Positions 23,580 through 60,012 of a stretch of 64,000 nucleotides of DNA are shown piece after piece. Under the pieces are notes generated by a model, which worked only from the letters and a program-made list of their open reading frames with translations, had not been told where the DNA came from and ran no database searches. Both the position numbers and the translations under genes were made by a program. Source of the stretch: an uncultured Clostridia bacterium (GTDB taxonomy: Bacteria; Acidobacteriota; Blastocatellia; UBA7656); assembly GCA_964615905.1 (NCBI GenBank), contig CAZTUB010000002.1, forward strand, positions 154,538 through 218,537. The letters run 5' to 3'. Each line of letters starts with the position of its first letter. Position 1 is the stretch's first letter.

Positions 23580-24803
23580 CTATGCCTTGTTCGATTTCCC
23601 GTTCGTGCTGAGAAGCTTTAACAGCGCTTGTTCTTCCGGTTCATATTCGGGCTGGAGGCGACGTATCAACCGTTGAGCCTTCGGCCTGAACTCGTCGATA
23701 GTCAGACCGGCAAGGTAGCGATCAAAGACTGCCGGGTGTATATAACAGCTCCGGCAGACTGTAGGAGTGTTGCCCAGCCGCTCGGCCACCTGTTTGACCG
23801 CGCGCACGATATTACGATTCGCCTCTTTTTCGCTCTCCGCCCTACCGGTCTCCGCCAGATTTATTGCGGCAAGCAGCGAGCCGCCCCATGTGCGAAAGTC
23901 CTTAGCGGAAAACTCGTACGATGTCGCCTTCTTTATATAGTCGTTTACGTCGCGCGGCGTCACAGGGCGCACGCGCCCATCTTCGTCCAGGAACTCAAAG
24001 AGTTTTGGGCCGCCCAGCGCCTTCAGGTCGCGCATGACCATGGCCATCTCTTGATCGACTACGATCCTGCGGTGGCGAATGTGGTGTTTACCGACAAAGC
24101 TGAAGATGAGCTTGCCGCCGCGTTTTATCTCAAGATGCCGATTGCGAAGCGTCGTGACCCCGTATGTGCGGTAACGCTTCACGCTCGATTCACTCCCGAT
24201 GCGAAAATAGAGATCGTTGATCAGCCGTATGACAAGGGCTAAGACGCGCTCGCGCGGAAAACCTTCCAAAGCGAGGTGCTCGTTTGTGATCCGCCGCAAA
24301 GAGGGAAGGTGACGGCCGAACCGCTCGATCTTTTCAAATTTCTTTTGCTGCTGTCGCGCGGCAAAAGTCGGATGATACTTGTATTGTATGCGGCCACTCG
24401 TATCGATTCCCACGGCCTGAAGCGGCGAGCGCGGTCGCGGGCTGATGCGCACATGCGTCCAGGCGGGGGGGATGACGAGCGATCTTATACGCTCAAGGTC
24501 CGCCTCGTTCGTTATGGCCTTGCCGGCGGGATCCTCGTACCTGAACCCGCGCTTCTTTGACCCGAGCCTGCGCCACCACCGCGCCCGCCCGCCACACTCG
24601 ACCACGGCAAGCGCGGTTTTTTCGCACATTTCGGTGTCGCTCGTCGCGCTCGCGTTTGGCTCGGTTTGCCCGGACGCGCCTTTTTTAGGGCCCGCTTTTT
24701 GCGAAGCCCCTTCCGGTGGCGTTACTTTTTTCGGAACTGGCGATGCGCTCATTCGGTCTTTTACCCCTCGAACGGTTTCATAAATCGCTTGCCCAAAGGT
24801 CAT
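23580..24803 (-). CDS. DNA topoisomerase IB (bacterial, poxvirus-like)
   Basis: IPPAWTHV, GRIQYKY, RIGSE, FVGKH, KDFRTWGG, LGNTPTVCRSCYIHP (catalytic R, K, R and Y). Confidence 0.93.
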   Translation of the reverse strand: MTFGQAIYETVRGVKDRMSASPVPKKVTPPEGASQKAGPKKGASGQTEPNASATSDTEMCEKTALAVVECGGRARWWRRLGSKKRGFRYEDPAGKAITNEADLERIRSLVIPPAWTHVRISPRPRSPLQAVGIDTSGRIQYKYHPTFAARQQQKKFEKIERFGRHLPSLRRITNEHLALEGFPRERVLALVIRLINDLYFRIGSESSVKRYRTYGVTTLRNRHLEIKRGGKLIFSFVGKHHIRHRRIVVDQEMAMVMRDLKALGGPKLFEFLDEDGRVRPVTPRDVNDYIKKATSYEFSAKDFRTWGGSLLAAINLAETGRAESEKEANRNIVRAVKQVAERLGNTPTVCRSCYIHPAVFDRYLAGLTIDEFRPKAQRLIRRLQPEYEPEEQALLKLLSTNGKSNKA

Positions 24804-26482: not shown

Positions 26483-27394
26483 TTAACGGCTGAGCCTATC
26501 GTCGAGATCGTCCAGATCGCGAATGAGAACCCATCCGGCGCTGTCTATAATTTTTCGATAACCCGTAGCCTCAGCTCCGCCGACCCATACGCGTGTTGAT
26601 GGGTGTATCGACCTTGCCAGCGCTTCCATCTCTTCTTCGAATTCGCGTGTCGGGCCCGTGACCATGCTCAAGGCAAGAAATCTAGAGTTGGTGAGCTGTA
26701 AGGCGTGTGCTATCTCAAGGGCAGGGAGGTCTGTCCCAAGATAGACTACGCGCCAGCCGCGACTTGTCGCAAGCAGCGCCGTCAGCAGCAGCCCGAATTC
26801 GTGCCGCTCTCCCTGGATCGTCGAAAGAACGATGGTGTCGGACTGTTTGGTTGGCGGGTATAGTCGTATGAGCGAGTTGAGCAGGCTGCGAATTAGCCCC
26901 GATGCCACATGCTCCTGTGCAACTCCAAGCTCTTTGTGCGCCCATCGCTCGCCCACTTGTTCAAGGATAGGCGCTATAACTTGCGTTACCAGCGTCTTTA
27001 CAGGAAAAAGCGTAGCAGCGCGGCTCAATTCCATGTCCGCAGAGGCCACATCCATTCGCTCTATGGCCTCAAGAAATCGCTCTTGCGCCGTCGAATAGGG
27101 GTCCTCGGCAACCGCGCTGTCAGGCTGGCTGCCGAGTAGATGTTCCAGTTCCTCAGCCGGTAGCTTTGCCGCCTGACCGATGCTGTGCCCTTTGTCGATA
27201 GCCTGGCGTAACTGTCTTAAGCGGGATATATCAGCTTCCGAATAGAGACGGCTGCCGCCTTCGCTGCGCACTGGTCGTATAACGCCGTACCGCCTCTCCC
27301 AGACCCTTATCACGTCGGCAGAAAGCCCCGTCAGCCTTGTAACCGCCCCTATGCGATACCGTGGTGTTCCAGACGCGTTTTCGTTTATCGTCAT
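26483..27394 (-). CDS. carH: CarH/LitR-type MerR regulator with cobalamin-binding domain (AdoB12 photoreceptor)
   Basis: MerR HTH (YRIGAVTRLTGLSADVIRVWERRY), Wx9EH (WAHKELGVAQEH) and ExHxxG (ERHEFG) B12 motifs, YLGTDLP. Start ATG 27394. Confidence 0.88.
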   Translation of the reverse strand: MTINENASGTPRYRIGAVTRLTGLSADVIRVWERRYGVIRPVRSEGGSRLYSEADISRLRQLRQAIDKGHSIGQAAKLPAEELEHLLGSQPDSAVAEDPYSTAQERFLEAIERMDVASADMELSRAATLFPVKTLVTQVIAPILEQVGERWAHKELGVAQEHVASGLIRSLLNSLIRLYPPTKQSDTIVLSTIQGERHEFGLLLTALLATSRGWRVVYLGTDLPALEIAHALQLTNSRFLALSMVTGPTREFEEEMEALARSIHPSTRVWVGGAEATGYRKIIDSAGWVLIRDLDDLDDRLSR

Positions 27395-27403
27395 ATCTCG
27401 CCA

Positions 27404-27523
27404 ATTCTGACCGTCTGTCCTGGGTTTGTCAAGATTATACCTGAACAAGCTTGTAGTATACGCTTCGATGTCTAAGATAAATCCAGGATAAATCTTGACA
27501 GAGGTCTCCTGGCTGTCTAAGCT
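27404..27523. promoter_or_regulatory. Divergent sigma70 promoters overlapped by 11-bp-periodic repeats (putative CarH operators)
   Basis: Plus strand TTGACA(27495)-17-TAAGCT with TCTAAGATAAA / TCCAGGATAAA / TCTTGACAGAG repeats. Minus strand TTGACA(27432)-17-CAGAAT with CTTGACAAACC / CAGGACAGACG. Confidence 0.65.
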
Positions 27524-27580
27524 TGGGGTGAATGTAATGTCGTCAGGTTCAAAGAATCGGTCGGGCAAAGGAGAGCGAAC

Positions 27581-28486
27581 GTGAAGATATTGATGACAGG
27601 AGCAACAGGGTTGATCGGGCAAAATCTCTGTCAAGCATTGACGGGTGAAGGTCACACTGTTGTGGCGCTCTCGCGTTCGCCCTCGGCTAATGGGGTTGCC
27701 GCCGAAGCTGTTTACGCGTGGGAGCCGCAGGCGGGGCCGCCGCCTGTTGAGGCTTTCGAGGGGGCTGAAGTGGTTGTCCATCTCGCGGGCGAGTCTATTG
27801 CCGCGCGGCGCTGGACTGACGAGCAGAAACGCCTCATAAGGGATTCGCGCATAATCGGCACGAGAAACCTTGTCGAAGGTATAATCAGGGCCAATCCTCG
27901 CCCGGCAGTATTTGTCAGCAGCTCGGCCGTCGGGTTTTATGGAGATCGCGGCGACGAAGTTCTCGACGAAAGCTCTCCGGCGGGCGCAGGGTTCCTGCCC
28001 GAAGTCTGCCAATCCTGGGAAGCCGAAGCGTTGCGAGCCGAGGGGGCAGGCGTTCGCGTCGCGCTCATCCGCACCGGCGTAGTTTTGAGCTCTGAAGGCG
28101 GCGCTCTCGAAAAGATGCTCCCGCCTTTCAAGCTCGGCGTAGCTGGACCGCTCGGCAGCGGACGCCAGTGGTTTCCCTGGATTCATATTGACGACATTGT
28201 CGGGATATTTCGCGAGGCGATCTTTTCAGCGAAACTTCGAGGCGCTGTAAACGGCGCTGCGCCCGGCATTGTGACCAACCGCAAGTTCACGCGCCAGCTT
28301 GCGGGCGTGCTTAACCGGCCCGCTTTTATACCCGCGCCGGAATTCGCGCTGCGGCTGATGATGGGGGAGATGGCCCAGATCGTCCTCGACAGCATGCGTG
28401 TTGTGCCCAGGGCGGCCAGCGCTGCGGGATACAGCTTCAAGTTTGCAGACCTTGAGCATGCACTGAGAAATCTCTTAAAAAAATAG
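27581..28486 (+). CDS. TIGR01777-type NAD-dependent epimerase/oxidoreductase
   Basis: TGATGLIG, VVHLAGE...RRWT, SRIIGTRNL, LGSGRQWFPWIHIDD and GAAPGIVTN motifs. Confidence 0.9.
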   Translation: MKILMTGATGLIGQNLCQALTGEGHTVVALSRSPSANGVAAEAVYAWEPQAGPPPVEAFEGAEVVVHLAGESIAARRWTDEQKRLIRDSRIIGTRNLVEGIIRANPRPAVFVSSSAVGFYGDRGDEVLDESSPAGAGFLPEVCQSWEAEALRAEGAGVRVALIRTGVVLSSEGGALEKMLPPFKLGVAGPLGSGRQWFPWIHIDDIVGIFREAIFSAKLRGAVNGAAPGIVTNRKFTRQLAGVLNRPAFIPAPEFALRLMMGEMAQIVLDSMRVVPRAASAAGYSFKFADLEHALRNLLKK

Positions 28487-42068: not shown

Positions 42069-43133
42069 ATGAGAATAGTGAGAGATAGCCTTATAAAAAC
42101 CCTGGCGGCGGTATCTTTATCTTTGGCTGTACTGGTTATCCCCGCGTTGCTTCAAGGCTGCGGCGGCGGTGCTGCGCCGGGCGACAGGGTGACGCTGATA
42201 CTTGGCGCGTACACCACGCCGCGCGAGGCTTACGGCAAAGCGATACTCCCCGCTTTTCAAAAGTACTGGAAAGAGAAGACCGGTAAGACCGTCGAGTTCC
42301 AGGAGTCCTACCAGGGCAGCGGCGCTCAATCGCGCGCGATAATCGGCGGGTTCGAAGCCGACATCGCCGCGCTCTCGCTCGCAGGCGACATAGACAAGAT
42401 CGCCGAGGCCGGGCTAATCACTCACGATTGGAAAAGCAAGCCTAACGGCGGGATGGTTTCGGATTCGATAGTCGTAATCGCCGTCCGAGAAGGCAACCCT
42501 AAGGGGATAAAAGACTGGCCCGACCTCACCCGGCAAGGGCTGAACATACTGACGCCCGACCCGAAGACGTCGGGCGGCGCGATGTGGAATATCAACGCCC
42601 TTTACGGCGCTGCGCTGCGCGGGTACGCGGGCGTTCCCAAAGATGACACGGCTGCTGCCGAGGAGTTTCTCAAGAGCGTATTTCGCAACGTCTCGATCAT
42701 GGATAAAGGCGCTCGCGAATCGATTACAAACTTTGAAAAGGGCGTAGGCGACGTTGCCTTGACCTACGAGAACGAAGTGCTCGTAGGGCGCGAGTCGGGC
42801 CAGAAGTACGAGTACGTCATCCCGCGCTCGACCATCTTGATAGAAAACCCTGTTGCGATCATCGACAAGAACGCCGACAAGCACGGCGTTCGCGAAGCGG
42901 CCGAAGGCTTTATCGAGTTCCTGTTCAGCAAAGAGGCGCAGCGAGCCTATGCCAAACACGGGCTCAGGCCTGTCGATAAGGATGTGGCGCGCGAAGTCGA
43001 GGCCCAGTACCCGCGCGTCGAAGACCTGTGGAAGATAGATTATCTCGGCGGCTGGGACAAAGTGATCAAAGAGATATACGGCCCGCAGGGAATCTATACG
43101 CGCATGTACGAGAGCTTGCACACATCAAGATGA
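42069..43133 (+). CDS. sbp: Sulfate/thiosulfate ABC transporter substrate-binding lipoprotein
   Basis: Lipobox LQGC, SYQGSGAQSRAIIGG, TPDPKTSGGA, GDVALTYENE and ILIENP motifs. Confidence 0.9.
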   Translation: MRIVRDSLIKTLAAVSLSLAVLVIPALLQGCGGGAAPGDRVTLILGAYTTPREAYGKAILPAFQKYWKEKTGKTVEFQESYQGSGAQSRAIIGGFEADIAALSLAGDIDKIAEAGLITHDWKSKPNGGMVSDSIVVIAVREGNPKGIKDWPDLTRQGLNILTPDPKTSGGAMWNINALYGAALRGYAGVPKDDTAAAEEFLKSVFRNVSIMDKGARESITNFEKGVGDVALTYENEVLVGRESGQKYEYVIPRSTILIENPVAIIDKNADKHGVREAAEGFIEFLFSKEAQRAYAKHGLRPVDKDVAREVEAQYPRVEDLWKIDYLGGWDKVIKEIYGPQGIYTRMYESLHTSR

Positions 43134-43999
43134 GCGCCAAACCTGTAGAGCTAAGACCCGAAAAGACCCCCGCCGCCCGCAATGTCGTCAGGCCGTGGGG
43201 CAGGTGGGGATTGCGCGCGGTCGCCATCAGCTATCTCGGATTGATGATCGTTCTGCCGCTTTCGGCGATCTTTGCCAAAGGGCTCGAGGCCGGGCTGACA
43301 GGGTTCGTCGCAGACATAACGAGCCCCATTGCGTTTGCCGCGCTGAAATTGACCCTTGTGACGGCGATCATCACCACCGTTATCAACGTGGTTATGGGGA
43401 CGCTGACGGCATTCGTGCTGGTGCGGTACGAGTTTCCGGGGCGCGGGCTGTTAAACGGGCTGATCGACATGCCTTTCGCCATACCGACTCTTGTGACAGG
43501 CGTGATGCTTGTCGTGCTCTACGGCCCGGCGGGTGTGCTTGGCGGCTGGTTCGAAGCGCGCGGAATAAAGATCATCTTCGCAACTCCGGGGATAGTCCTT
43601 GCGCTGCTGCTCGTAACATACCCGTTCGTCGTTCGCGCGATCCAGCCAGTCCTTATGGATATGCAGAGCGATCAGGAAGAGGCCGCCTATACGCTTGGGG
43701 CGACGAAGTGGATCGCGTTTTATCGCATAGTGCTTCCGACGATCATGCCTGCGGTTATCACGGCGGCGCTGCTCACGTTCGCCCGCGCCATCGGCGAGTT
43801 CGGGTCGATAGTGATCGTTGCGGGCAACATACCGGGGCTGACGCTTACAGCGCCGGTCCACGTCTACGGCCAGATCGAATCGCAGAACGTGCGAGGCGCA
43901 AGCGCGATGTCCGTTCTGTTGCTGGCCATCTCGTTCACTTTGATGATTACAATCGACTGGATGCAGCGGCGCAGAGAGGTCTCCGATGCAACAGGCTGA
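43130..43999 (+). CDS. cysT: Sulfate ABC transporter permease CysT
   Basis: IDMPFAIPTLVTG, QEEAAYTLGA and FARAIGEFGS motifs. ATGA-coupled start at 43130. Confidence 0.9.
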   Translation: MSAKPVELRPEKTPAARNVVRPWGRWGLRAVAISYLGLMIVLPLSAIFAKGLEAGLTGFVADITSPIAFAALKLTLVTAIITTVINVVMGTLTAFVLVRYEFPGRGLLNGLIDMPFAIPTLVTGVMLVVLYGPAGVLGGWFEARGIKIIFATPGIVLALLLVTYPFVVRAIQPVLMDMQSDQEEAAYTLGATKWIAFYRIVLPTIMPAVITAALLTFARAIGEFGSIVIVAGNIPGLTLTAPVHVYGQIESQNVRGASAMSVLLLAISFTLMITIDWMQRRREVSDATG

Positions 44000-44858
44000 A
44001 CCGTCAAGCCCGCTCGAATTCGGATTGATGTCGGGCAAGCCCGCGCGGGTCAAAAAGAAGCACAGCCCCGTCGAATGGCTCTTGATAGCGGTGGTTGTGA
44101 TCTATGCCTCCGCGCTGCTGATCGGCCCGCTCGCGGCCGTTTTCTGGGGAGCTTTAGAGAAGGGGGCGGGCACGTTTATAGCCGAGGTCACTTCGCCGAA
44201 CGCGTTGAACGCGCTAAAGCTGACGCTGATCGTGGGAGTGTGCGCTACGGCGATAAACGCGGTCTTCGGTCTTTTGGTGGCGTGGGTGCTTGTCCGCGAC
44301 AACTTCCGGGGACGGCAGCTAGTCAACGGGCTTGTCGATTTGCCGTTCGCCGTTTCGCCGGTCATCGCAGGGCTGATGCTGATACTGCTATTCGGGCGGG
44401 GCGGGTGGTTCACACCGCTCACGGACGCGGCAGGCATAAAGATGGTCTTTGCGCTGCCGGGTATGCTTATCGCCACGACCTTTGTGTCCATACCGTTCGT
44501 CATTCGCGAAGTCATGCCGGTGCTTTCTCAGATAGGCACGCAACAGGAGAGCGCGGCATATACGATGGGGGCGAGCGCGTGGCAGACGTTCTGGCATGTC
44601 ACGCTGCCTTCGATCCGCTGGGGCCTCTTTTACGGCATCTCGCTCACGCTTGCGCGCACGCTGGGCGAGTTCGGCGCAGTGCTTGTGGTCAGCGGCGGGG
44701 TGAGCGGGCTGACCGAAACCTCGACGCTGTTTATCTTCCGCTCGCTTGACGACCGCAACTACGTCGGAGCCTATGCGATGGCTATGGTGCTGGCTCTGAT
44801 CTCTTTCAGCATCCTGATGTTTATGGAGTTTATAAAAAAGCGCACGCAGGATAGCTAG
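43986..44858 (+). CDS. cysW: Sulfate ABC transporter permease CysW
   Basis: DLPFAVSPVIAG, FVSIPFVIREV and ARTLGEFGAV motifs. Confidence 0.9.
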   Translation: MQQAEPSSPLEFGLMSGKPARVKKKHSPVEWLLIAVVVIYASALLIGPLAAVFWGALEKGAGTFIAEVTSPNALNALKLTLIVGVCATAINAVFGLLVAWVLVRDNFRGRQLVNGLVDLPFAVSPVIAGLMLILLFGRGGWFTPLTDAAGIKMVFALPGMLIATTFVSIPFVIREVMPVLSQIGTQQESAAYTMGASAWQTFWHVTLPSIRWGLFYGISLTLARTLGEFGAVLVVSGGVSGLTETSTLFIFRSLDDRNYVGAYAMAMVLALISFSILMFMEFIKKRTQDS

Positions 44859-44894
44859 ACCTGACTTACTTTCCCTCGACAAACAGGAGGTTTC

Positions 44895-46463
44895 ATGAAG
44901 CTTGAAAAGGTATCATTTTACTCTCTATTGTTTCCGGCGCTCGTTCTGATTTTGCTTCCGAGCGCGGTCGCGCTGGCAAATGACGGCGGCAACTCCCCTA
45001 AGGCGGCAGCCGCGAGCGCAAAGGCCGCGTCTCAAAACAGTAGCGGCCAACCGGGAGCCAAACCTGAGAGCGGATCAGAGGATCAGGTCAAGCAGCTTGC
45101 CGAAAAAGTCGAACGGCTACAGGCTTTGATCGAGCAGCAGCAGCGGGCGCTTGCTGCGCTTGAGCGCAGGCTTGAGGGCAGAGACGCGAAGCCAGAGCCC
45201 GCCTCGCTCGACACAAGAGTGGCGACGAGCACCGGGGTCGAGCCGTCCACAGAGCCTGTCACTGCAACAAAACCTACAGATGCTGCCCGCGCGCAGAGCC
45301 AGCCCGCCGCGCCTGACAAACCCGCGCTTCTTGCAGGGTGGGACAAAGGCCGGGCCTTTTTGCGCTCAAGCGACGGCAGTTTCGAGACGTTCATAGGCGG
45401 CTACGGCCAGCTCGATTTTCGCGGCTACCAGTCCGGCCCCGTCGCCCCGGCGAACACTTTTCTTCTGAGGCGCGCGCGGCTCATCGTCGAAGGAAAGGTC
45501 CAGCGCTATTACGACTTCAAGATCGAAGGCGATTTTGCCGACAGGACCGGCATCATCCTCCGCGACCTGTTCGTCAGGGTCCACCGCATAGACGAACTCC
45601 AGCTGACCTTCGGCCAGTTCCGCGTGCCTTACAGCCAGGAAGAGATTCGCTCGGACGCCGTGCAGGATTTTGTCGAGCGCTCGCTGGTCAACAACCTTGC
45701 GCCCAGCCGCAGCCCCGGCATACAGGCGTCGGGCGTCGTGGGCGGGGGCGTCTTTGAATATCAGGTCGGCGCGTTCAACGGCAAAGGGCTGCTGGTCCCG
45801 AACGATAACGACACGCCAGAAGGCGCGATACGTTTGCGCTTCACGCCGTGGCGTAACGGCAGCGCCTTCTGGCTCAAGGGGCTCAGCTTCGGCGGGGCGT
45901 ACACGCAGGGTCGAAGCCGGGGCGGCCTGAGCGTTATCGGGCAGACCGAAAGCCGCAGCGTCACTTTCTACGAGGCAGACAGGATCAACGGCAAGGTCCA
46001 GCGCGCAAACGGCGAGCTGACATGGATGCTCGGGCCCGCCGCCATTCGCGCGGAGTACGACCAGACAAACCAGGAGCGGCTGAGAATGGGCGCGGGCGGG
46101 ACAGACCTGCCGGGAGTTGTCGCCAAAGGCTACATGGCGCAATTCACTTACCTGTTGACCGGCGAGACCAAGCCCGAAGCGGGCGCGGTCGTTCCCAAAC
46201 ATAGCCTGTTTGAAGAAGGCAGCGGCACAGGGTTAGGCGCGTGGGAGGTGAAATTCCGGTACTCGAATCTTCAAATCTCCAACGGCACGCCGAAGGCGAA
46301 CCGCGCAGAGACTTTCTATTTCGGGCCTAACTGGTATCTGAACCGCTTCGTTCGTTACACGCTCGATCTTGGCGTGGAGCGGTTCAAAGACCCTTTGCGC
46401 ACGCCCAACCCCGGAGACAAGAATTTCTTCGTAGTGCTCAGCCGTGTTCAGATCGTCTTCTAG
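44895..46463 (+). CDS. OprO/OprP-like anion-selective outer-membrane porin with N-terminal coiled coil
   Basis: Signal peptide, coiled coil, FLLRRARL, GQFRVPYSQE, FVERSL, beta-strand alternation and terminal Phe. Confidence 0.8.
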   Translation: MKLEKVSFYSLLFPALVLILLPSAVALANDGGNSPKAAAASAKAASQNSSGQPGAKPESGSEDQVKQLAEKVERLQALIEQQQRALAALERRLEGRDAKPEPASLDTRVATSTGVEPSTEPVTATKPTDAARAQSQPAAPDKPALLAGWDKGRAFLRSSDGSFETFIGGYGQLDFRGYQSGPVAPANTFLLRRARLIVEGKVQRYYDFKIEGDFADRTGIILRDLFVRVHRIDELQLTFGQFRVPYSQEEIRSDAVQDFVERSLVNNLAPSRSPGIQASGVVGGGVFEYQVGAFNGKGLLVPNDNDTPEGAIRLRFTPWRNGSAFWLKGLSFGGAYTQGRSRGGLSVIGQTESRSVTFYEADRINGKVQRANGELTWMLGPAAIRAEYDQTNQERLRMGAGGTDLPGVVAKGYMAQFTYLLTGETKPEAGAVVPKHSLFEEGSGTGLGAWEVKFRYSNLQISNGTPKANRAETFYFGPNWYLNRFVRYTLDLGVERFKDPLRTPNPGDKNFFVVLSRVQIVF

Positions 46464-46515
46464 GGAGAACTTTCTGAAATTCGTTCTCGGAAATCGGACT
46501 GGATGAGGTAATCTA

Positions 46516-48381
46516 TTGAGCAATACGATTATGCAAGACCTTGTCAGTCGAAAACCGAGCGCAGTGCTGCGCGATCTCAACGTCTTGGTTCCCGCCGAAG
46601 AGGTGGCGGCAGCAGAGCGCATATTGCCGCTTGCGGTCAGCCTGAGCGGCTCGGCAAAATCGACCATCTCGCTGATAGGCGTGACGCCTATCGGGCGCGA
46701 CGTGTCGCTCAGCGAAGGCGCAATCTCGGCCCAGCGCTTGCGCAACGACCTTGAGACTCTTGCGAGCGAAAGCCCGCGCATAAACCGGCTGGCCGGCAGC
46801 TTCGTCTCTCATCAACCCTGGGAAGACATCGAAGCGTTGATCGACGAGCGCATGCAGGACAACGACCTGCTGCTGCTCGCCTGGCAGCAAGACAAGACAT
46901 ATTTTCAAGCGGACCTGGCGGAAGTCTTGCGCGACCCTCCCTGTAATGTCGCGGTCGTAAACCCGATGGTCGACCCGCGCGACATACGCCGGATATTGCT
47001 GCCGGTTCGCGGCGGCCCTTACGCGAACCTGTCGCTCCAGCTGGCGATACGGCTCGCGCGGTCTGCCAACGCCGAAGTCACGCTCCTTCGCGTGGTCTCA
47101 AGCGACGACGACCCGATGAGCCAGGTGCTCAGAGAGAAGTTCACCGGGCTTTCGGACGCCTTCCCGGAGATCACCACCGAGCTACAGATCGTCGGCGACG
47201 CGGGAACGGCGGTCGTCCGCGCGCTGAAAGATCATCAAGCGATTATTCTCGGAGCGAGCGCCGCGCACGACGGCCCGCCCATAGGGTTGATGGCCAGCAT
47301 AATCCTTCAGCGCAAGGACGTGACGACGCTGCTCGTAAAGACCAAAGAGCCGTTTCGCCTGCCCGCTTCGACCGCGCGGCGGGCCAACCTGCCCGTGCTC
47401 GTGCGCGTAGAGAAATGGTTCGCCGAGAATACATTTCACAGCAAAGAGTTTTCAGACATCGACCGCCTCATCGACTTAAAGAGGCAGCAGAACCTTCGCA
47501 TAAGCCTCGGTCTTCCCGCGCTCAACCAGGAATCGACCATAGGAAACCTGATTCACTCGATCAAGCGAAAGCTCATGGACGACGCGCCGCTCCTTGATGA
47601 GATCGTGTTGATCGACGGCAACTCGACAGACTTCACGCGGAAGATTGCCGCAGAGCTTGGCGTCCCCCCATACATCCATCAAGAGATACTGCCGAGGCTC
47701 GGCAGCGTACGAGGCAAGGGCGAATCGCTGTGGAAAAGCCTCTACCTTTTGAAAGGCGATCTGATCGTCTGGCTGGACACGGACATCGTGAACCCTCACG
47801 CGCGAATCGTCTACGGCATACTTGGGCCGCTGTTGATGAATTCGCACATACAGTACGTCAAAGGATTTTATAAGCGGACGATCAGGTCGAGCGGCGAAGT
47901 TCTCAGCGCCGGAGCGGGCACGGTGACTGAGCTTCTGGCGCGGCCGATGATAAACCTCTTCTTCCCGGACCTGTCTGGGGTGATAGAGCCGCTCGCGGGT
48001 ATTTACGGCGGGCGGCGCTCCGCGCTCGAACAGGTCCCGTTCTACACAGGCCCCGGAGTCGAGGCAGGGTTGCTGCTCGACTTGCTTGATAAATTCGGGT
48101 TGAAGTCTTTAGCTCAGGTCGACCTTGAGGATGTAGAGTATCGCAGCCAGGATGAGCGCGCCTTTGGTAAGATGTCGTTTGCGATCTTGCAGGTCTTCGC
48201 GCAGCATCTGAAGCAGAAAGGTTTGATGGACGCGGGGGCGCAGATGGAGCGAACCATGAAGCGGCTGCGCGTTGAAGATGACCGCTTCTACCTGGAAGAG
48301 ATTGACGTTCACGAACAACAACGCCCGCCGATAATCGAAGTGACGGAGTATCGCGGTCGCTACCGCCCGCGACTTTCGTAA
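46516..48381 (+). CDS. gpgS: Fusion of two USP-like domains to glucosyl-3-phosphoglycerate synthase (GT-A)
   Basis: N-terminal USP-like segments (RILPLAVSL; RRILLPVRGGP...LAIRLA). C-terminal LPALN..TIG, IDGNSTD, GKGESLWKSL, DTD, YVKGFYKR, GTVTELLARP, EPLAG. Start is uncertain (TTG 46516 or ATG 46531). Confidence 0.82.
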   Translation: MSNTIMQDLVSRKPSAVLRDLNVLVPAEEVAAAERILPLAVSLSGSAKSTISLIGVTPIGRDVSLSEGAISAQRLRNDLETLASESPRINRLAGSFVSHQPWEDIEALIDERMQDNDLLLLAWQQDKTYFQADLAEVLRDPPCNVAVVNPMVDPRDIRRILLPVRGGPYANLSLQLAIRLARSANAEVTLLRVVSSDDDPMSQVLREKFTGLSDAFPEITTELQIVGDAGTAVVRALKDHQAIILGASAAHDGPPIGLMASIILQRKDVTTLLVKTKEPFRLPASTARRANLPVLVRVEKWFAENTFHSKEFSDIDRLIDLKRQQNLRISLGLPALNQESTIGNLIHSIKRKLMDDAPLLDEIVLIDGNSTDFTRKIAAELGVPPYIHQEILPRLGSVRGKGESLWKSLYLLKGDLIVWLDTDIVNPHARIVYGILGPLLMNSHIQYVKGFYKRTIRSSGEVLSAGAGTVTELLARPMINLFFPDLSGVIEPLAGIYGGRRSALEQVPFYTGPGVEAGLLLDLLDKFGLKSLAQVDLEDVEYRSQDERAFGKMSFAILQVFAQHLKQKGLMDAGAQMERTMKRLRVEDDRFYLEEIDVHEQQRPPIIEVTEYRGRYRPRLS

Positions 48382-48412
48382 GGCAGGGGCCGGGGAGGCT
48401 TGAGGCCGAGGC

Positions 48413-50284
48413 ATGTCTATTGTCCTGGACCAGATAACAAAACGCTACGGCAACCAGCTCATCGTCGATAGGGTTTCGCTCGAAGTATCGGACGGGGAGC
48501 TGTTCGTGCTGCTGGGCGCATCGGGCAGCGGCAAGAGCACGATCCTCAGAATGATCGCGGGCCTTGTAACGCCCGACAGCGGGCGTATACACCTTCACGG
48601 GCGCGACGTTACTGAGCTTCAGCCGCAACAGCGCGGGACCGGTTTTGTCTTCCAGAACTACTCGATCTTCCGTCACATGAGCGTCGCGGAAAATATCGAG
48701 TTCGGCTTGAAGATAAGAAAGATGACCGCCGCCGACCGAAAACAGCGCCGCGAGAGATTGCTCGACCTCGTAGGGCTAGGCGGGCTGGGCAATCGTTACG
48801 CGAGCCAGCTTTCGGGCGGCCAGCAGCAGCGCGTCGCGCTCGCCCGCGCGCTCGCATACGAGCCGGGCGTGCTGCTTCTAGACGAGCCTTTCGGCGCGCT
48901 CGACGTGAAGATTCGCGCGCAGCTGCGCCGCAGCCTCAAAGAGATTCAACGAAACCTCGGCGTCACCACGATACTAGTCACACACGATCAAGAAGAGGCG
49001 TTCGAGCTGGCCGACCGCATCGCCGTTCTTGAGCGCGGCCGGTTGCTCGAAGTCGGTGAAGGCGAGGCGCTATACTCGCGCCCGCGCTCGCTGTTTGTCG
49101 CGACCTTTCTGGGAGCGGGGACAGTCCTCGTAGGCCACGCGGACAAAGGGCAGGCGCGGTTCGGCCCTCTGTCGATGCCCATACCCGATACTGTGCCGCA
49201 CGAAGACGGGGCGCAGGTCCAGTTGCTCTTCAGGCCGGAGCAGGTCACGTTGAGCGAAGAGAAGCCGCCTGATGGCGCGATGGTTTTAGGGCAGGGCACG
49301 ATCATCGAGCAGAGCTTTACGGGGTCGAGCCAGCGAGTGCGGCTGAGAGTGCCGCGCATAGCGGCCACGCGCCAGGTCGCTCCCTCGGTCCCGTTTGGTG
49401 AAGAGGGCTTGCTCATAGACGCTATTGTGCCGCCGGGCCTGGAACTCTATACCAAACCGCTATGGGTTTCTATACGCGGCTGGCATATTCTCAAACAGCC
49501 GCCGCCGCGCCTTATGGTCTTTGATAACGGCTCGGAATCGAGCGCGACGCTCGGCATGGCTCGCTGGCTGGTCGAGCGGCTGCGGGCTTCGGCCACACTA
49601 CTCACGGTCGCAGAGAGCCCCGAAGCGGCCGAGCGCTTGCGCGAAAAGCTAAAACAGCGACAACAGCAGACAGGGCTTACAGATGCCGAGCTGAGAATCC
49701 GATTCGGCGACGCCGCAGAGCAGATAGCCGCTGAGCAGAACGAGACGCTTTACGAGGTGATAATGCTTGCGCCGAAGATCAAACGATTCTCGGTGCAGGA
49801 CAGGCGCACGGACGGGCTCGGCACGACCACTGCAAAGGTGTTGAAGCACGCGGAAGTGCCCGTGCTCCTGGTAAAAGGGGCAGAGCGCGAGGTGCGGCGC
49901 ATATTGATCTGCACGGCGGCGGGCGAGCCGGGCAAAAGCGATGTGAGGGTGGGAGGCCGTCTCGCGCGGCGGCTTGGCGCGGCGGTGACGCTGCTTTATA
50001 TCACCAAGAACACCTTAGAGCCGGGCAGCCTTGCGCGCACGCATCTTGATCGCGCGGTCGCTACGCTCAGGGCGGGCGATATAAACGGCGAGGTGCGCGT
50101 GCGCGAGGCGGCGGCCCCGGCCGACGGCATACTTGCCGAAGCGAGCGAAGGCGATTACGACCTGATAGTCGTCGGCGGCCACGTCCCAAAATCGCGCTCG
50201 GTCTTTCGCATAGACAACGTGACCATGCAGGTCATGACAGGGGCCGACCGCCCGGTGCTGGTCGTGCCCACGGCCGATAGTTAG
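48413..50284 (+). CDS. cysA: CysA-type ABC ATPase fused to two C-terminal USP domains
   Basis: [30 protein letters not shown] and LDEPFGALD, then TOBE-like region and two USP repeats ending in PVLLV / PVLVVP. Confidence 0.85.
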
Positions 50285-50351
50285 CCGATAGTTAAATTTA
50301 TGAGGATTGAGGGCCGCGCCAGTCGGGCCTGTCTTCGCAACCGGCTTTCAT

Positions 50352-51248
50352 ATGAAAGATGATCGCGACACGAACTCCGCCCGGTCCTCAGTCCTCAACC
50401 CCCAGTCCTATGCTCTAAGTCTTACTTTCAATAGCCGAGCCAACAAGAAATTCGGGGTGGGGCTGATGCGGGCATTCGGCGGGGCCATCATCTTCTCGCT
50501 CCCCATGCTTATGACGATGGAGATGTGGTACCTGGGTTTCTACATGGCTCCCGAAAGATTCGCTCTGTTTAGCGCGCTCATAATCCCGCTGCTTGTCGGG
50601 CTTTCACACTTCCTGGGGTTCGAAGAGACATTCTGCTGGCAGGATGACATTATCGACGCGTTCGTAGCGTACGCCGTGGGGTTCGTCACTTCGGCTGCGA
50701 TCCTGTTCCTGCTCGGCATACTTGGGCCGGGCATGTCGCCGGGCGAGGTCATCGGCAAGATCGGCTTGCAGGCCGTATCGGGAAGCATAGGCGCGTTGCT
50801 TGCCCAATCCGAGCTTGGGAGCGACAAGGAAGAAGAACACGAGAAGATATGGGAGGCGGGCTATTTTGGCGAGCTGTTTCTCATGTCTGTGGGAGCAGTC
50901 TTTCTGGCTCTCAACCTCGCGCCGACCGAAGAGATGATACTGATCGGGTACAAGATGACCCCGTGGCACGCAACGGCGCTTATCATATTCTCGCTCGTAG
51001 TGATGCACAGCTTCGTTTACATGGCCGAGTTCGGAGGGCAGGCGTCGATTGCCGAGGGCGATTCTGCGTGGGGCGTCTTTCTGCGCTTCACGGTTGTCGG
51101 CTACGCTATGGCGTTGCTGATAAGCTTCTACATACTATGGGTTTTCGGCAGGACCGATGACGTGGCATTTGTCGAAACCATTATGGCGGTCATAGTCCTG
51201 AGCTTTCCCGCTGCGGTAGGCGCAGCGGCGGCGCGATTGATCTTGTGA
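50352..51248 (+). CDS. TIGR02587-type integral membrane protein
   Basis: RAFGGAIIFSLPMLMTMEMW, LAPTEEM and FPAAVGAAAARLIL. Paired with a TIGR02588-type gene. Start uncertain. Confidence 0.82.
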   Translation: MKDDRDTNSARSSVLNPQSYALSLTFNSRANKKFGVGLMRAFGGAIIFSLPMLMTMEMWYLGFYMAPERFALFSALIIPLLVGLSHFLGFEETFCWQDDIIDAFVAYAVGFVTSAAILFLLGILGPGMSPGEVIGKIGLQAVSGSIGALLAQSELGSDKEEEHEKIWEAGYFGELFLMSVGAVFLALNLAPTEEMILIGYKMTPWHATALIIFSLVVMHSFVYMAEFGGQASIAEGDSAWGVFLRFTVVGYAMALLISFYILWVFGRTDDVAFVETIMAVIVLSFPAAVGAAAARLIL

Positions 51249-52484: not shown

Positions 52485-53081
52485 ATGACCGCCGAAAGTA
52501 AGAAAGCTGACCGCAGGTCGTCGCGCACGCGGCGCTCTTTGCGAGATGCCTTGATCGAGCTGATCCTTGAGAAGCGCTACGACTCTATCACAGTGCAGAA
52601 CGTAATCGACCGGGCGGACGTCGGGCGGTCGACCTTCTATGCTCATTACCGCGACAAAGAAGACCTCTTTTTAAGCGACTGGGAAGCGATGCTCGACCGG
52701 TTCGCCCGGCGCATAGAATGGCATGATGCAAGCGCGCACAGCATTGTCCCGATAGCCGGTCTGTTTAGCCACGTGCAGGAGGCGCACCATTTTTACCTGG
52801 CGATGGCCAGGTCGAGAAAGACCGATTGGCTCTTTAAGACAGGACAGAGTTACCTGAAGCAGAGCATAGAGAATTCGCTCGCGCCGTTCCTTGCGGACAA
52901 GCCCCGTCCGTCGGTGCCGAAGCCTCTCCTGGCGAACTATCTTGCGAGCGAGATACTGGCGCTGCTCAGGTGGTGGCTCGATAACAATATGCCTTACACG
53001 CCTGAGCGGATGGACGAGATTTTTCACGAGCTGGTGATGCCAGGGTTTCGCGCAAGCTTAGGAGCCGGGCAGGATGATTAG
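52485..53081 (+). CDS. TetR/AcrR family transcriptional regulator
   Basis: RTRRSLRDALIEL...ITVQNVIDRADVGRSTFYAHYRDKEDL HTH. Confidence 0.92.
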   Translation: MTAESKKADRRSSRTRRSLRDALIELILEKRYDSITVQNVIDRADVGRSTFYAHYRDKEDLFLSDWEAMLDRFARRIEWHDASAHSIVPIAGLFSHVQEAHHFYLAMARSRKTDWLFKTGQSYLKQSIENSLAPFLADKPRPSVPKPLLANYLASEILALLRWWLDNNMPYTPERMDEIFHELVMPGFRASLGAGQDD

Positions 53082-56449: not shown

Positions 56450-56613
56450 AAAATCTCAGGCTATCGGATGTTATTCCACTTACTCTCGCCTATGCGCACT
56501 TTTGTGGGAAGCCTTCCGGTATGGAAAGCGGGTATATGTCTTTCTAACGAGATTAATCGCAACCTTGATCGTCTGCGGTTATATCAGAAGTTGAACCCCC
56601 ACAGCAAGAAGTC

Positions 56614-56649
56614 GGCAAGTCTCACTATCGCGAAATAGCGAGACTTGCC
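56614..56649 (-). terminator. Stem-loop between precursor and modification genes (attenuator or RNA-stabilising hairpin)
   Basis: GGCAAGTCTC-A-CTAT / ATAG-C-GAGACTTGCC, 21 nt downstream of the precursor stop. Confidence 0.7.
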
Positions 56650-56669
56650 TTGACGAGGTTACACGGCTG

Positions 56670-57896
56670 CTAATAGCAGCACGCGGTGTGAATGCCCGAA
56701 CAGGGTTGCTGTGCCGTGGGCGGGCAGCACTGAGTGTAGACGCCTGAGCAAGGCGGTTGAGTGATTATGCAGCACTGCGTGCGAATGCCGGAGCAGGGTT
56801 GGTGCGAAATCGGCCCCGGGTCAGGACAGCACGCCGTGTGAATACCAGAGCACGGCTGTTGCGCCGTGGGTGGACAGCAAGCCGTGTAGATGCCTGAACA
56901 AGGAACCTGCGCTGTCGGCGGGCAGCACTGCGTGCGGATGCCCGAACATGGCTGGTGCGAAATCGGCCCTGGGTCAGGACAGCACGCGGTGTGAATGCCC
57001 GAACAGGGTTGCTGTGCCGTGGGCGGGCAGCACTGAGTGTAGACGCCTGAGCAAGGCGGTTGAGTGATTATGCAGCACTGCGTGTGAATGCCGGAGCACG
57101 GCGGCCGCGAGATCGGTGCGGCAGCCTGCAAAGCGTCAGCCTGCAAGCAGCACTGCGTCTGTATGCCTGAGCAGGGCTGGTGCGATACCGGGCTGGGGCA
57201 GCATTGGGTCTGGACCCCTGAACACGGCGGGGCCGAGACGAGGGCCTGTCCCTGCGGGCAACATTGCGTCTGGACTCCCGAACAGGGAGGGTGCGAGACG
57301 ACGCAGCATTGCGTGTAAACGCCTGAGCAAGGCGGGGCGGAGACGAGAGGCCCGACCGCCTGTGCGCCCACTGCTCCCGCCGGACAGCACTGCGTCTGAA
57401 TACCTGAGCAGGGCTGGTGCGATACCGGGCTGGGGCAGCATTGGGTCTGGACCCCTGAACACGGCGGGTGCGAAATTACAGGGCCGGGACAGCACTGCGT
57501 CTGGACTCCTGAGCAGGGTGGAGCGGAGACGGGAGTGGCTGCCTGCGCGCCCGTGCCGGCTTGATACTGCTGCTGTATTCGGCCCTCCAGAAATTTGGCC
57601 TTCGGTCGGTCACCACCGGCTTTCCCATGCGTCACATCCGCGTCGCGATTTATCCAGACATAACTGCCGCCAAGCGGCGACTGCTCTGCCGGAAGCTCGA
57701 CGGTGTGCAAAACCGCATCCTGGGGAATCTCTACGTAATCGCTCAATTGCGGATCGAGGTAGAGCCTTATGTGGTCTTCCTCAGAAGAGGCCCCCAAATA
57801 CCCCTGTAATAGCAACGCATCCGGTGGATTATTCGGGTCCTTGACTATCTGATCAACGAAGCTGGCTGTTTTGTTATTTCCTGTTTGTCGAGGCAT
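56670..57896 (-). CDS. Giant multi-repeat RiPP (lanthipeptide-like) precursor: ~120-aa leader plus 16 Cys/Ser/Thr-rich units
   Basis: GGAGGA RBS. Cys-free leader followed by 16 copies of P-C-S-G-[V/I]-x-T-[Q/A]-C-C. First gene of the kinase-lyase-cyclase operon. Confidence 0.85.
   Translation of the reverse strand: MPRQTGNNKTASFVDQIVKDPNNPPDALLLQGYLGASSEEDHIRLYLDPQLSDYVEIPQDAVLHTVELPAEQSPLGGSYVWINRDADVTHGKAGGDRPKAKFLEGRIQQQYQAGTGAQAATPVSAPPCSGVQTQCCPGPVISHPPCSGVQTQCCPSPVSHQPCSGIQTQCCPAGAVGAQAVGPLVSAPPCSGVYTQCCVVSHPPCSGVQTQCCPQGQALVSAPPCSGVQTQCCPSPVSHQPCSGIQTQCCLQADALQAAAPISRPPCSGIHTQCCIITQPPCSGVYTQCCPPTAQQPCSGIHTACCPDPGPISHQPCSGIRTQCCPPTAQVPCSGIYTACCPPTAQQPCSGIHTACCPDPGPISHQPCSGIRTQCCIITQPPCSGVYTQCCPPTAQQPCSGIHTACCY
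56677..57468. repeat. Exact internal duplications in the precursor gene
   Basis: 105 bp identical at 56677-56781 and 56980-57084. 66 bp identical at 57166-57231 and 57403-57468. Confidence 0.85.
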
Positions 57897-58227
57897 GAGT
57901 CGATTCCTCCGTCGAAGTGATTAACACCATGGGTGAGGTTCTTATGCCAAAGAATCGCAGAAGGTAATAAGTCTTACTGCCTTTGTTTGTACGTGCTATC
58001 ATCCGCGTCTCTAGCAAGATGCCTGCCCGTATTGGGACGCTTGAACCCTTGAGATTGCTGCGATACTAACTGAGAGACGGGCATTATAATCCAAATCACC
58101 GAATCTGAGAAGTAATGTTCGTTTCTTTCGGTCGACAAGGGCAGATCACATTGGACCCTGTTGGCAAGTAGGCGACAGATTCTGTTATGATGCCCCGGAA
58201 TCTACGAGCTGCGGAGTAATAGGATCA

Positions 58228-60012
58228 ATGGGCGAACCCAACAGGAAACGGCGTTTCTGTCTCGTGCTAATCAAGCCGTCGCATTACGACGACGACGGCT
58301 ACGTCATACAGTGGTTCCGGTCTGCTATCCCCTCAAACTCGCTTGCGGTGCTCAACGGGCTGGCGCTCGAAGCTGCCAAACAGAACGCGCTTGGCGACGA
58401 TGTCCATATAGACATTCATGCCTTTGACGAGACGAACACGCATATACGCCCTGCCCGCATCGCGTCGCTCGTGAAACGGGCCGACGCCGGAATGGTCATG
58501 CTCGTCGGCGTCCAGTCCAACCAGTTCCCGCGAGCGCTCGACATTGCGGCCCCTTTGCGCCGCCAGGGGATTCAGGTCGCCATCGGCGGCTTCCACGTCT
58601 CAGGCACTATCGCGATGCTCAAAGAGCAAGACCCGGATGTTTGCCGCGCGCAGGAGATGGGCGTGTCGTTATTTGCAGGCGAAGCCGAAGGCCGCCTCGG
58701 CCAGGTGTTGCGCGACGCCTGGGACGGGAGGCTCAAGCCGCTCTACAATTTTATGAACGACCTGCCGGACCTCGAAGGCGCGGCCATGCCGTTGCTTCCG
58801 GCCGACCGCGTCAACAGGACCGCGGGCGCGAATACGAGCCTTGACGCGGGGCGCGGTTGTCCTTATCAATGCTCCTTCTGCACAATCATAAACGTCCAGG
58901 GACGCAAATCGCGCCACCGCTCGGCAGATGATGTGGAGCAGATCGTGCGGGCAAACCTCGCGCAGGGGCTTCACAGGTTCTTCATCACCGACGATAATTT
59001 TGCCCGCAACAAGGATTGGGAGGCGATACTGGACCGGCTCATATACCTGCGCGAGGTTGAACGCGTCGAGATGAGCCTCATCATTCAAGTGGACACGTTG
59101 TGCCACAAGCTCCCGAACTTCATCGAGAAAGCCGCCCGCGCAGGCGTCAAGCGAGTCTTCATAGGGCTTGAGAACATAAACCCTGAAAACCTTATCGGCG
59201 CAAAGAAGCGACAGAATAAGATTACCGAATACCGCAAGATGCTGCTTGCGTGGAAGCAGGCGGGGGTTGTGACATATTGCGGCTACATACTCGGCTTCCC
59301 AAATGATGAGCCGGAGACGATCCTGCGCGACATCCGAATCATCCAGAAAGAGCTGCCGGTCGACCTGCTTGAATTCTTCTACCTTACGCCATTGCCGGGT
59401 TCGGAAGACCATCGCAGGCTGCACGAATCGGGGGTGTGGATGGACCCCGATCTCAACAAGTATGACCTCAACCACATTACGACAGGCCACCGAAATATGA
59501 CGCGCGAGCAGTGGGAGCAAGTCTACCGTTCGGCCTGGCAGACGTACTACACGACAGAGCATATTGAAACGGTGCTCAGGCGGGCCATGGCCACTCGAAC
59601 TAGCCCCGGCAAGACGCTCTTCTTTATCGTATGGTTCAAGGGCTGCATCGACATCGAGAAGATACACCCGCTTGAGGGCGGGTTCCTGCGCCTGAAGTTC
59701 CGCACCGCGCGCAGGTCCGGCCTGCCGCTTGAACCTGTCTGGCTGTTCTACCCGAAATATATCGTCGAAGCGATGTGGAAGCAGGTCAGGTGGGTATCGC
59801 TTTATTTGCGCCTGCGGCTCATCTACCTCAAGATCAAACGCGACCCGCAGCGTTACGACTATATGGACCTCGCGCTTGAGCCTGTGGCCGATGACGAGAT
59901 CGAAACCAGAGAGATGTTCCAGTCCGAGGTCGCTCAAACATACGTAGGCCGGGTGCAGCAGATTGAGAGGATGCGCAGGGGCGCGGTCTCAACGCCGCGC
60001 GCAGAGCAGTGA
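58228..60012 (+). CDS. Cobalamin-binding radical SAM protein
   Basis: N-terminal B12-binding Rossmann-like domain (VGVQSNQ; IGGFHVSG), GRGCPYQCSFC (CxxxCxxC), FITDDNF and IGLEN motifs. Confidence 0.9.
   Translation: MGEPNRKRRFCLVLIKPSHYDDDGYVIQWFRSAIPSNSLAVLNGLALEAAKQNALGDDVHIDIHAFDETNTHIRPARIASLVKRADAGMVMLVGVQSNQFPRALDIAAPLRRQGIQVAIGGFHVSGTIAMLKEQDPDVCRAQEMGVSLFAGEAEGRLGQVLRDAWDGRLKPLYNFMNDLPDLEGAAMPLLPADRVNRTAGANTSLDAGRGCPYQCSFCTIINVQGRKSRHRSADDVEQIVRANLAQGLHRFFITDDNFARNKDWEAILDRLIYLREVERVEMSLIIQVDTLCHKLPNFIEKAARAGVKRVFIGLENINPENLIGAKKRQNKITEYRKMLLAWKQAGVVTYCGYILGFPNDEPETILRDIRIIQKELPVDLLEFFYLTPLPGSEDHRRLHESGVWMDPDLNKYDLNHITTGHRNMTREQWEQVYRSAWQTYYTTEHIETVLRRAMATRTSPGKTLFFIVWFKGCIDIEKIHPLEGGFLRLKFRTARRSGLPLEPVWLFYPKYIVEAMWKQVRWVSLYLRLRLIYLKIKRDPQRYDYMDLALEPVADDEIETREMFQSEVAQTYVGRVQQIERMRRGAVSTPRAEQ

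Follow-up and report, generated by a model that had tools for sequence, protein, structure and literature searches.

A putative class Vb-type lanthipeptide system with a sixteen-unit precursor in an uncultured Acidobacteriota-like bacterium

Introduction

To our knowledge, the ring count of characterised lanthipeptides is below about ten, their cores being 20-40 residues long, and the class Vb SmoA system was reportedly published by Pei et al. in J Am Chem Soc in 2022. Dehydration by a kinase, LanK, together with a lyase, LanY, has been reconstituted for cacaoidin (PMC9486802). The combination of LanK and LanY with a LanC cyclase constitutes class Vb, of which mSmoA of Streptomyces is the sole characterised example (PMC11186320, PMC12328550, PMC12291118). 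Approximately 20% of HopA1-like genes were found to be near or fused to LanC genes by Eyles et al. (2021), being left uncharacterised in that work. On a 64,000-nucleotide stretch of contig CAZTUB010000002.1 from an uncultured bacterium (the whole stretch being termed the window), an open reading frame (ORF) was identified that is probably the precursor gene in a lanthipeptide system of the class Vb type (LanK, LanY, LanC), with genes for these three enzymes immediately downstream (Table 1).

According to descriptions of the SmoA/SmoK/SmoY/SmoC system of Streptomyces (PMC11186320, PMC12328550, PMC12291118), the window locus shares with it an APH kinase (PF01636), a HopA1 lyase (PF17914) and a LanC as stand-alone proteins, with only (methyl)lanthionine cross-links to be expected and with no LanD or LanX. 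The Smo cyclase is reported in the same sources to direct overlapping rings, and the S...T..CC arrangement of the window precursor would need a cyclase of this kind. However, SmoA is described there as a short single-core actinomycete peptide, whereas the window precursor consists of 408 aa with a leader of ~114 residues, 16 units and 48 Cys, and its hosts are Acidobacteriota-like soil bacteria rather than Streptomyces; the likening to SmoKYC is by description and not by sequence.

Class Va systems (cacaoidin CaoK/CaoY, lexapeptide LxmKYX, pristinin and the triantimycins) share the LanK/LanY dehydration chemistry with the window locus, but they possess no LanC and use LanD and LanX to make aminovinyl-methylcysteine (AviMeCys), whereas the window encodes a zinc-type LanC and neither of the other two. 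Class IV LanL (venezuelin) and class II LanM resemble it in dehydration by phosphorylation and elimination and in a zinc LanC-fold cyclase, the window cyclase being closest to LanM C-terminal domains (LicM2, E 6e-28). Nevertheless, LanL and LanM are fused polypeptides with Pkinase/OspF-type or LanM-type dehydratases, unlike the three window genes with their APH kinase and HopA1 lyase. Relative to described systems, the apparent novelties are a leader predicted to fold and without known relatives, abutting tandem units, a several-fold higher potential thioether count and a host range made up mostly of hard-to-culture soil phyla. No description of the precursor family or of multi-unit lanthipeptides was found in the full texts searched, a description in a subscription journal being possible.

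Precursor gene and repeat core

The sequence of the window had previously been read without database searches (the sequence-only reading), and 16 copies of a Cys-rich unit had been claimed for positions 56670..57536. On the minus strand and in frame, this region comprises residues 121-408 of the precursor and its stop codon, i.e. the 3' two-thirds of the ORF. The pattern PCSG[VI].T[QA]CC was counted exactly 16 times in the translated ORF, which gives the 48 Cys that had been claimed. Residues 121-408 further contain 28 Ser, 23 Thr (51 Ser/Thr) and 49 Pro, and the claimed lack of Lys and Glu was borne out, with zero of each; three Asp and three Arg are the only charged residues. Each unit was found to possess one Ser/Thr 4-5 residues ahead of its first Cys (at position -3 in 12 units and -4 in four), together with the Ser in CSG and the Thr in xTxCC. 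An independent recount agreed with the earlier figure of three Ser/Thr in 13 of the 16 units and four in units 1, 3 and 7.

The description of the unit as a fixed scaffold with one hypervariable position proved slightly simplified. Position X does vary in the window gene (Q in six units, Y in four, H in four and R in two), but two scaffold positions were also found to vary conservatively (V in seven units and I in nine; Q in 12 and A in four), and variation at X is weaker in an orthologue (L033), where it is Q in 13 units and H in five. Units 3, 5 and 7 are each followed by a longer Ala/Gly/Gln linker, and these three linkers would mark off blocks of 3, 2, 2 and 9 units. The precursor ends in ...CCY. 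No family of Pfam or NCBIfam matched it at E<=0.01, and no second copy of the leader or precursor was identified in the window. An ORF of similar size (23580..24803) was found to be unrelated.

Alignment of the repeats, a check proposed in the sequence-only reading, was performed on the 16 units, showing a shared scaffold, and codon-level variation was tabulated. At each of the invariant P, C, S, G, T, C and C residues, 2-4 synonymous codons are used. Pairwise comparison of nine scaffold codons gave 498 synonymous versus 111 non-synonymous differences, in contrast to 0 synonymous versus 92 non-synonymous for the X codon. This shows that the scaffold of the unit is under purifying selection, with amino-acid change at X. 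The array is far beyond chance, and it is not the result of recent duplication alone because the invariant residues carry varied synonymous codons. Copies of both recent and older age are present, with units 9-10 being almost identical in DNA to units 15-16, and units 11 and 14 possessing five differences, all of them synonymous. Higher-order periods of 153 nt and 51-54 nt were identified in the region with Tandem Repeats Finder.

Long ORFs also overlap the repeat region on the other strand and in other frames, e.g. 57116..57844 (+) and 57136..57495 (-). These were rejected as genes, being shadows of the GC-rich repeat without homologue support. On a related contig (L031), one gene caller chose a wrong frame of this kind for the precursor fragment.

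Modification enzymes and class assignment

The kinase, lyase and cyclase are the next three genes downstream of the precursor on the same strand, with the lyase gene overlapping the kinase stop codon by 4 nt and a gap of 6 nt between lyase and cyclase. This order of four genes was found to be kept in all related loci having enough downstream DNA, which span metagenome-assembled genomes (MAGs) of Acidobacteriota, Chloroflexota, Dormibacterota and Proteobacteria. Catalytic residues were examined in alignments of the enzymes of about 20 related cassettes.

The best NCBIfam model for the kinase is the class V kinase LxmK (84.7 bits, E 6e-24). As the equivalog cutoff of this model is 315 bits, the kinase is no more than distantly related to characterised LanK enzymes. 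H211-G-D213...N218 and D235-W-E were found to be invariant across 21 cassette kinases. The lyase matches the PDB entry 9dk1_B, named 'Lyase' (E 1e-5), and its residues R185, K216, R226 and D228 are invariant in 18/18 sequences, with Y233 present in 15/18. By spacing and local context, R185, K216, R226 and Y233 probably correspond to R187, K219, R229 and Y236 of CaoY, the residue roles being those given for that enzyme (PMC9486802). The cyclase aligns to LicM2, LanCL1/2 and NisC and possesses the HG, WCHG and CHG motifs, with H216, C283, C331 and H332 being invariant in 19/19 sequences. As judged from these alignments, the catalytic motifs of all three enzymes are intact.

On the LanM model, which has 932 positions, the cyclase matches only positions 547-932, the C-terminal cyclase part, and the LanL and LanKC models likewise match it over the cyclase part only. 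Class II was rejected as the cyclase is not fused to a LanM N-terminal dehydratase, and classes III and IV (LanKC/LanL) as lyase, kinase and cyclase are encoded by three genes and not by one polypeptide. Class I was rejected as no LanB-type dehydratase domain was identified in the scanned neighbourhood. LanD (the flavin Cys decarboxylase) and LanX were not found among the main ORFs scanned at 40942-63084, and neither is conserved in related loci. What the locus does contain are the components of class Vb: an APH kinase (PF01636), a HopA1 lyase (PF17914), a zinc LanC (PF05147), and a precursor with a leader and a Ser/Thr-Cys core.

In source annotations, the name 'type 2 lanthipeptide synthetase LanM' is widely given to stand-alone cyclases of the cassette type (~420 aa). 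Since the dehydratase domain is missing from these proteins, their domain content marks this annotation as a systematic over-call, one which hides the clusters.

Leader domain

The leader is predicted to fold, although the confidence of the AlphaFold2 model is moderate (mean predicted local distance difference test score 75.7, with block means of 79-88 over residues 21-90). A profile of the leader (A1) was built from an alignment of 23 sequences. No match to PDB sequences was obtained with it even at E<=10, and a Foldseek search of the PDB with the AlphaFold2 model gave nothing meaningful (best E 0.27, template modelling scores of 0.15-0.28). Long conserved leaders ahead of hypervariable cores are otherwise represented by the nitrile-hydratase-like and Nif11 leaders of proteusins and prochlorosins. 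The window leader is likewise long, but it was found to have no sequence or fold similarity to these in Pfam, NCBIfam or the PDB.

Among 1.84 billion proteins searched with A1, 3161 cluster representatives were retrieved at E<=1e-3 and 1901 at E<=1e-10. By this measure, the family marked by the leader comprises >3,000 protein clusters, mostly from soil metagenomes. The leader ends in a helix with the consensus K-A-K-F-L-E-G-x-I-x-Q-x-[F/Y], in which G105 is invariant and L103 nearly so in alignment A1. The anchor [FY][LF]xG was found in 185/190 family members, and the remaining helix positions are strongly conserved. A similar helix (FLKGKIQQDF or LAGKIQQDY) opens multi-core precursors of Cylindrospermum and Okeania, which are without the beta domain. 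The terminal helix is a candidate recognition element for the modification enzymes, and profile A1, comprising the leader domain and this helix, provides a search handle for thousands of relatives that are unnamed in Pfam and NCBIfam.

Distribution of the precursor family

Fifty-five word-indexed homologues of the precursor were identified, sharing the leader but with very different cores, these being Cys/Pro/Ser/Thr-rich repeats, typically chains of CP[S/T]xxxxC. A scan of GTDB species representatives with a 9-sequence alignment, in which the closest match to the window was 70%, found the family in MAGs only, with hosts among Terriglobia, Pyrinomonadaceae, Bryobacteraceae, Thermoanaerobaculia, Chloroflexia/Caldilineaceae, Dormibacterota, and Alpha- and Betaproteobacteria.

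For the 168 members with more than five Cys, Ser+Thr was found to be at least equal to Cys in every one (168/168; median ratio 1.27, r = 0.91), as would be required for every Cys to find a dehydro-residue partner. The largest Cys count among the family cores is 68. Units of the window type were also identified in eight other proteins, where the first Cys is preceded by a Ser/Thr at a distance of 4-6 residues in 24/24. The L031 contig (~87% nucleotide identity) possesses the same C-terminal units with R/H exchanges at X. The L033 orthologue contains 18 units with 65 Cys and 71 Ser/Thr, the ratio being exactly 3:3 in 16 of its 17 delimitable units, and many of these follow a strict 15-residue period, PIS[H/A]PPCSGVQTQCC.

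Gly-rich tracts (GGGGFGGFGG and similar) end or interrupt many precursors (L002, L007, L010, L011, L012, L016, L019 and L020), with no such tract in the window precursor. A subfamily with a divergent leader (~30% identity to that of the window) was identified at L029 4824-9582, with two tandem precursors, one of which (P0054) has a single PPCSGVHTQCC unit. An APH kinase comes after a relative, P0049, and the L029 contig ends ahead of any possible cyclase. A 923-aa protein adjacent to the tandem precursors and considered as a LanL was found to be a generic PknB-like Ser/Thr kinase, not demonstrably LanL, and is uninformative.

Two cyanobacterial loci carry the same kinase-lyase-cyclase cassette. 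That of Cylindrospermum stagnale PCC 7417 (L030, CP003642.1, 1997-9266) encodes a Peptidase_C1, a ~530-aa multi-core precursor, an APH kinase, a HopA1 lyase and a LanC, and that of Okeania sp. KiyG1 (L032, 1852-8275) has the same gene set, including the Peptidase_C1. The repeat of the Cylindrospermum precursor is QVGSCIG[V/I]FSCIAVSG, and the Okeania precursor contains about 12 copies of ...PVCPPTSPPYCPTINPTG....

Proposed modification and alternative explanations

In the proposed mechanism, the leader of ~114 residues, chiefly through its terminal FLEGRIQQQY helix, would dock the precursor on the LanK-LanY dehydratase. LanK with ATP would phosphorylate ~48-51 Ser/Thr of the core, and LanY would eliminate the phosphate to give dehydroalanine and dehydrobutyrine. 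The zinc-dependent LanC would then direct Michael addition of the 48 Cys thiols, resulting in (methyl)lanthionine rings. Within each unit of 15-19 residues, ring 1 would join the upstream Ser/Thr to the first Cys, enclosing 5-6 residues; rings 2 and 3 would join the CSG Ser and the xTxCC Thr to the CC doublet, being overlapping or nested, and position X (Q/Y/H/R) would be an exposed, diversifying residue. The sequence-only reading had proposed (methyl)lanthionine formation from composition, and this is strongly supported by the kinase/lyase/LanC operon with its intact motifs, with further support from the 3:3 ratio in L033 and from a Ser+Thr count at or above that of Cys throughout the family.

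Several points weigh against this interpretation. The ring topology is a guess from spacing, and every modification step in this precursor family is inferred. The 48 enzymatic cyclisations would be without precedent for a single substrate, and the core may be modified only in part. The kinase is distant from characterised LanK enzymes and the leader model is of moderate confidence, as noted above. Furthermore, the four-gene cassette contains no exporter, immunity gene or leader protease, and the gene for a processing protease could lie in another part of the genome.

A Cys-rich metal-binding or redox-buffering protein resembling metallothionein, with free thiols or thiolates and with neighbouring enzymes that are unrelated to it or modify it only in part, would account for the high Cys content, and the CC doublets and the His/Tyr at X could suit metal binding. 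Other Cys-rich RiPP-like proteins (RiPPs being peptides made by the ribosome and modified after translation) have been proposed as metallophores (PMC8692599). This is nevertheless a very improbable explanation for the window precursor, as no metallothionein or other Pfam family matches it, it is strictly co-linear with kinase, lyase and cyclase across phyla, and the Ser+Thr content of the 168 members would be left unexplained, as would unit Ser/Thr that are invariant under codon-level purifying selection. The same Ser/Thr conservation bears on the reading of the ORF as a disulfide-rich secreted repeat protein, with which the even number of Cys and the repetitive architecture agree; neither a signal peptide nor a hydrophobic N-terminus was seen by inspection of the sequence, the gene lies within an operon of cytoplasmic enzymes, and the chance of such a protein appears slight in the extreme. 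Equally hard to credit is the reading that the ORF is spurious, arising from GC-rich DNA, or that misassembly has raised or lowered the number of repeats. Near-identical copies such as units 9-10 and 15-16 are difficult for short-read assembly, and several antisense ORFs overlap the region, but those ORFs have no support comparable to that of the precursor frame, on which the synonymous-only variation indicates selection. The leader is conserved in thousands of proteins, and the independent L031 contig ends in the same C-terminal units and ...CCY stop. As to the reality of the gene, only the exact number of repeat copies could prove to be different.

Nature of the product

Other RiPP classes offer well-known examples of multi-core precursors. 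Those of cyanobactins and microviridins consist of tandem units separated by spacers or recognition sequences, with a protease encoded alongside. The Cylindrospermum and Okeania precursors resemble that of the window in their tandem modifiable units, GxIQQ[DQ][FY] helix and cassette. However, their units are set apart by long spacers and a protease is encoded beside them, whereas the window units abut, no linked protease is present and the leader is large and beta-rich. The spaced units and adjacent Peptidase_C1 of the cyanobacterial loci look like true multi-core processing.

For the window precursor, the sequence-only reading had left open a library of excised variants or a single polymer. 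The former, in which a protease encoded elsewhere would cut between the units to release ~16 small tricyclic lanthipeptides differing mainly at X, is supported by the solely non-synonymous variation at X, as expected of diversified products, and by the clear multi-core precursors beside Peptidase_C1 in the two cyanobacterial cassettes. On the other side, the units abut (an exact 15-residue period in L033) and, outside the units themselves, no conserved flank that could serve for recognition or cleavage was found in the core, which is almost free of charged residues. In most family members the Cys run straight into the next P-[S/T] without a spacer, in CP[ST]xxxxC chains. No protease or exporter is conserved in loci of the acidobacterial type, and no protease lies within about 10 kb in the window. 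A library of this kind is therefore considered unlikely for the window gene.

Instead of being excised as 16 peptides, the consecutive thioether knots would most likely stay joined in a single chain or in a few blocks of several units, because the units abut, no cleavage motif is conserved, the core is scarcely charged and the cassette has no protease or exporter. A polymer or blocks are judged to be about twice as probable as excised single units. The stricter proposal that the core remains uncut, forming a ribosomal polymer of ~29 kDa in which 16 tricyclic thioether knots stand in direct succession, with about 48 lanthionines (up to about 68 in relatives), is tentative and falls somewhat short of an even chance. 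If it is true, the product would be a lanthionine-stapled protein material and not a peptide antibiotic, encoded by >3,000 clusters across soil phyla, and the beta leader domain would serve more than enzyme recruitment, e.g. solubilisation, assembly or export. As a low-confidence guess, the product could be a protease-resistant peptide polymer that is secreted or associated with the envelope, or an antimicrobial.

With 48 potential thioethers, the question arises of how one kinase-lyase-cyclase set would process hundreds of residues with fidelity, and what structure and function a chain of contiguous thioether knots would have. The commonness of the family in hard-to-culture soil phyla (Acidobacteriota, Chloroflexota and Dormibacterota) also calls for explanation. 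For peptide engineering, the 15-residue unit would be an attractive minimal scaffold, combining, as proposed, three rings that are fixed with a single exposed residue that varies.

Genomic context

Table 1. Features of the putative lanthipeptide locus and its surroundings, in window positions
Feature	Position	Strand	Details
Precursor gene (lanA-like)	57896..56670	minus	408 aa + stop codon; conserved-leader homologues; first of four-gene cassette
Leader domain, residues 1-114	57555..57896	minus	Alignment A1; predicted small beta-rich fold, then C-terminal helix
Conserved helix K-A-K-F-L-E-G-R-I-Q-Q-Q-Y-Q, residues 99-112	57561..57602	minus	Leader end; candidate enzyme-recognition element
Core region, residues 121-408	56673..57536	minus	16 units [S/T]-x2-3-P-C-S-G-[V/I]-X-T-[Q/A]-C-C
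LanK-like kinase (APH family), 364 aa	55355..56449	minus	PF01636, 25.6 bits (cutoff 23.2)
LanY-like phospho-Ser/Thr lyase (HopA1 family), 345 aa	54321..55358	minus	PF17914, 140.8 bits
LanC-type cyclase, zinc ligands, 418 aa	53058..54314	minus	PF05147, 235 bits
Hairpin, perfect 16-bp stem	56611..56654	minus	~16 nt past precursor stop; between precursor and enzyme genes
Promoter-like TTCTCA-17-TATAAT	58083..58111	minus	~190 nt 5' of ATG; consensus scan 10/12, pattern match only
Solute-binding protein, ABC permease, ABC ATPase, Usp fusions, porin, DUF2391	42069-51248		ORFs

In lanA-type operons, a hairpin typically separates the precursor gene from the enzyme genes. That of the window has a minimum free energy of -33.5 kcal/mol (z = -3.5), with 0/200 shuffles folding as well, and was not picked up by a scan for T-run terminators. 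When the first 90 nt after the precursor stop codons were surveyed in L001-L027, GC-rich hairpins with stems of 9-27 bp were found to follow the stop in 14/20 related loci (z < -2). Some of these, e.g. that of L006, carry a T-run. The window hairpin is likely to be an attenuator/terminator or a transcript stabiliser. Taken together, the hairpins of the loci have the look of a conserved attenuator and suggest the usual excess of precursor over enzyme transcript.

Apart from the four genes, no neighbour shows conservation across the related loci, extra clusters there being antisense shadow ORFs. Conservation with the cassette does not extend to the window neighbours (a TetR regulator, transport genes and a TonB-domain protein), and a dedicated exporter or protease was not found among the ORFs at 42069-51248. 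A 594-aa B12-binding radical S-adenosylmethionine (SAM) protein (58228..60012, +) is encoded divergently to the precursor, with an intergenic region of 331 bp between the two genes; the NCBIfam models matching it best (BchE, HpnJ and KedN5-like) do so weakly, all being far under their cutoffs. Its gene was not counted as a tailoring enzyme of the system because it is missing from every related cassette; the protein would be a tailoring enzyme specific to this locus or else have no relation to the system.

A gene for a TetR-family regulator (52485..53081, +) is convergent with the cyclase gene, overlapping its 3' end by 24 nt, an arrangement that recurs in L031, and it is possibly a local regulator. 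Further away, an ORF at 26483..28186 (-) encodes a MerR helix-turn-helix fused to B12-binding domains, the architecture of a CarH-like light- or B12-responsive regulator, with an N-terminal extension of ~275 residues to which no Pfam family matched. A cluster of unusual fusions at 46516..51248 (+) comprises a glycosyltransferase-2/Usp fusion, an ABC ATPase with two Usp matches and DUF2391, with a phosphate-selective porin and components of ABC uptake ahead of it.

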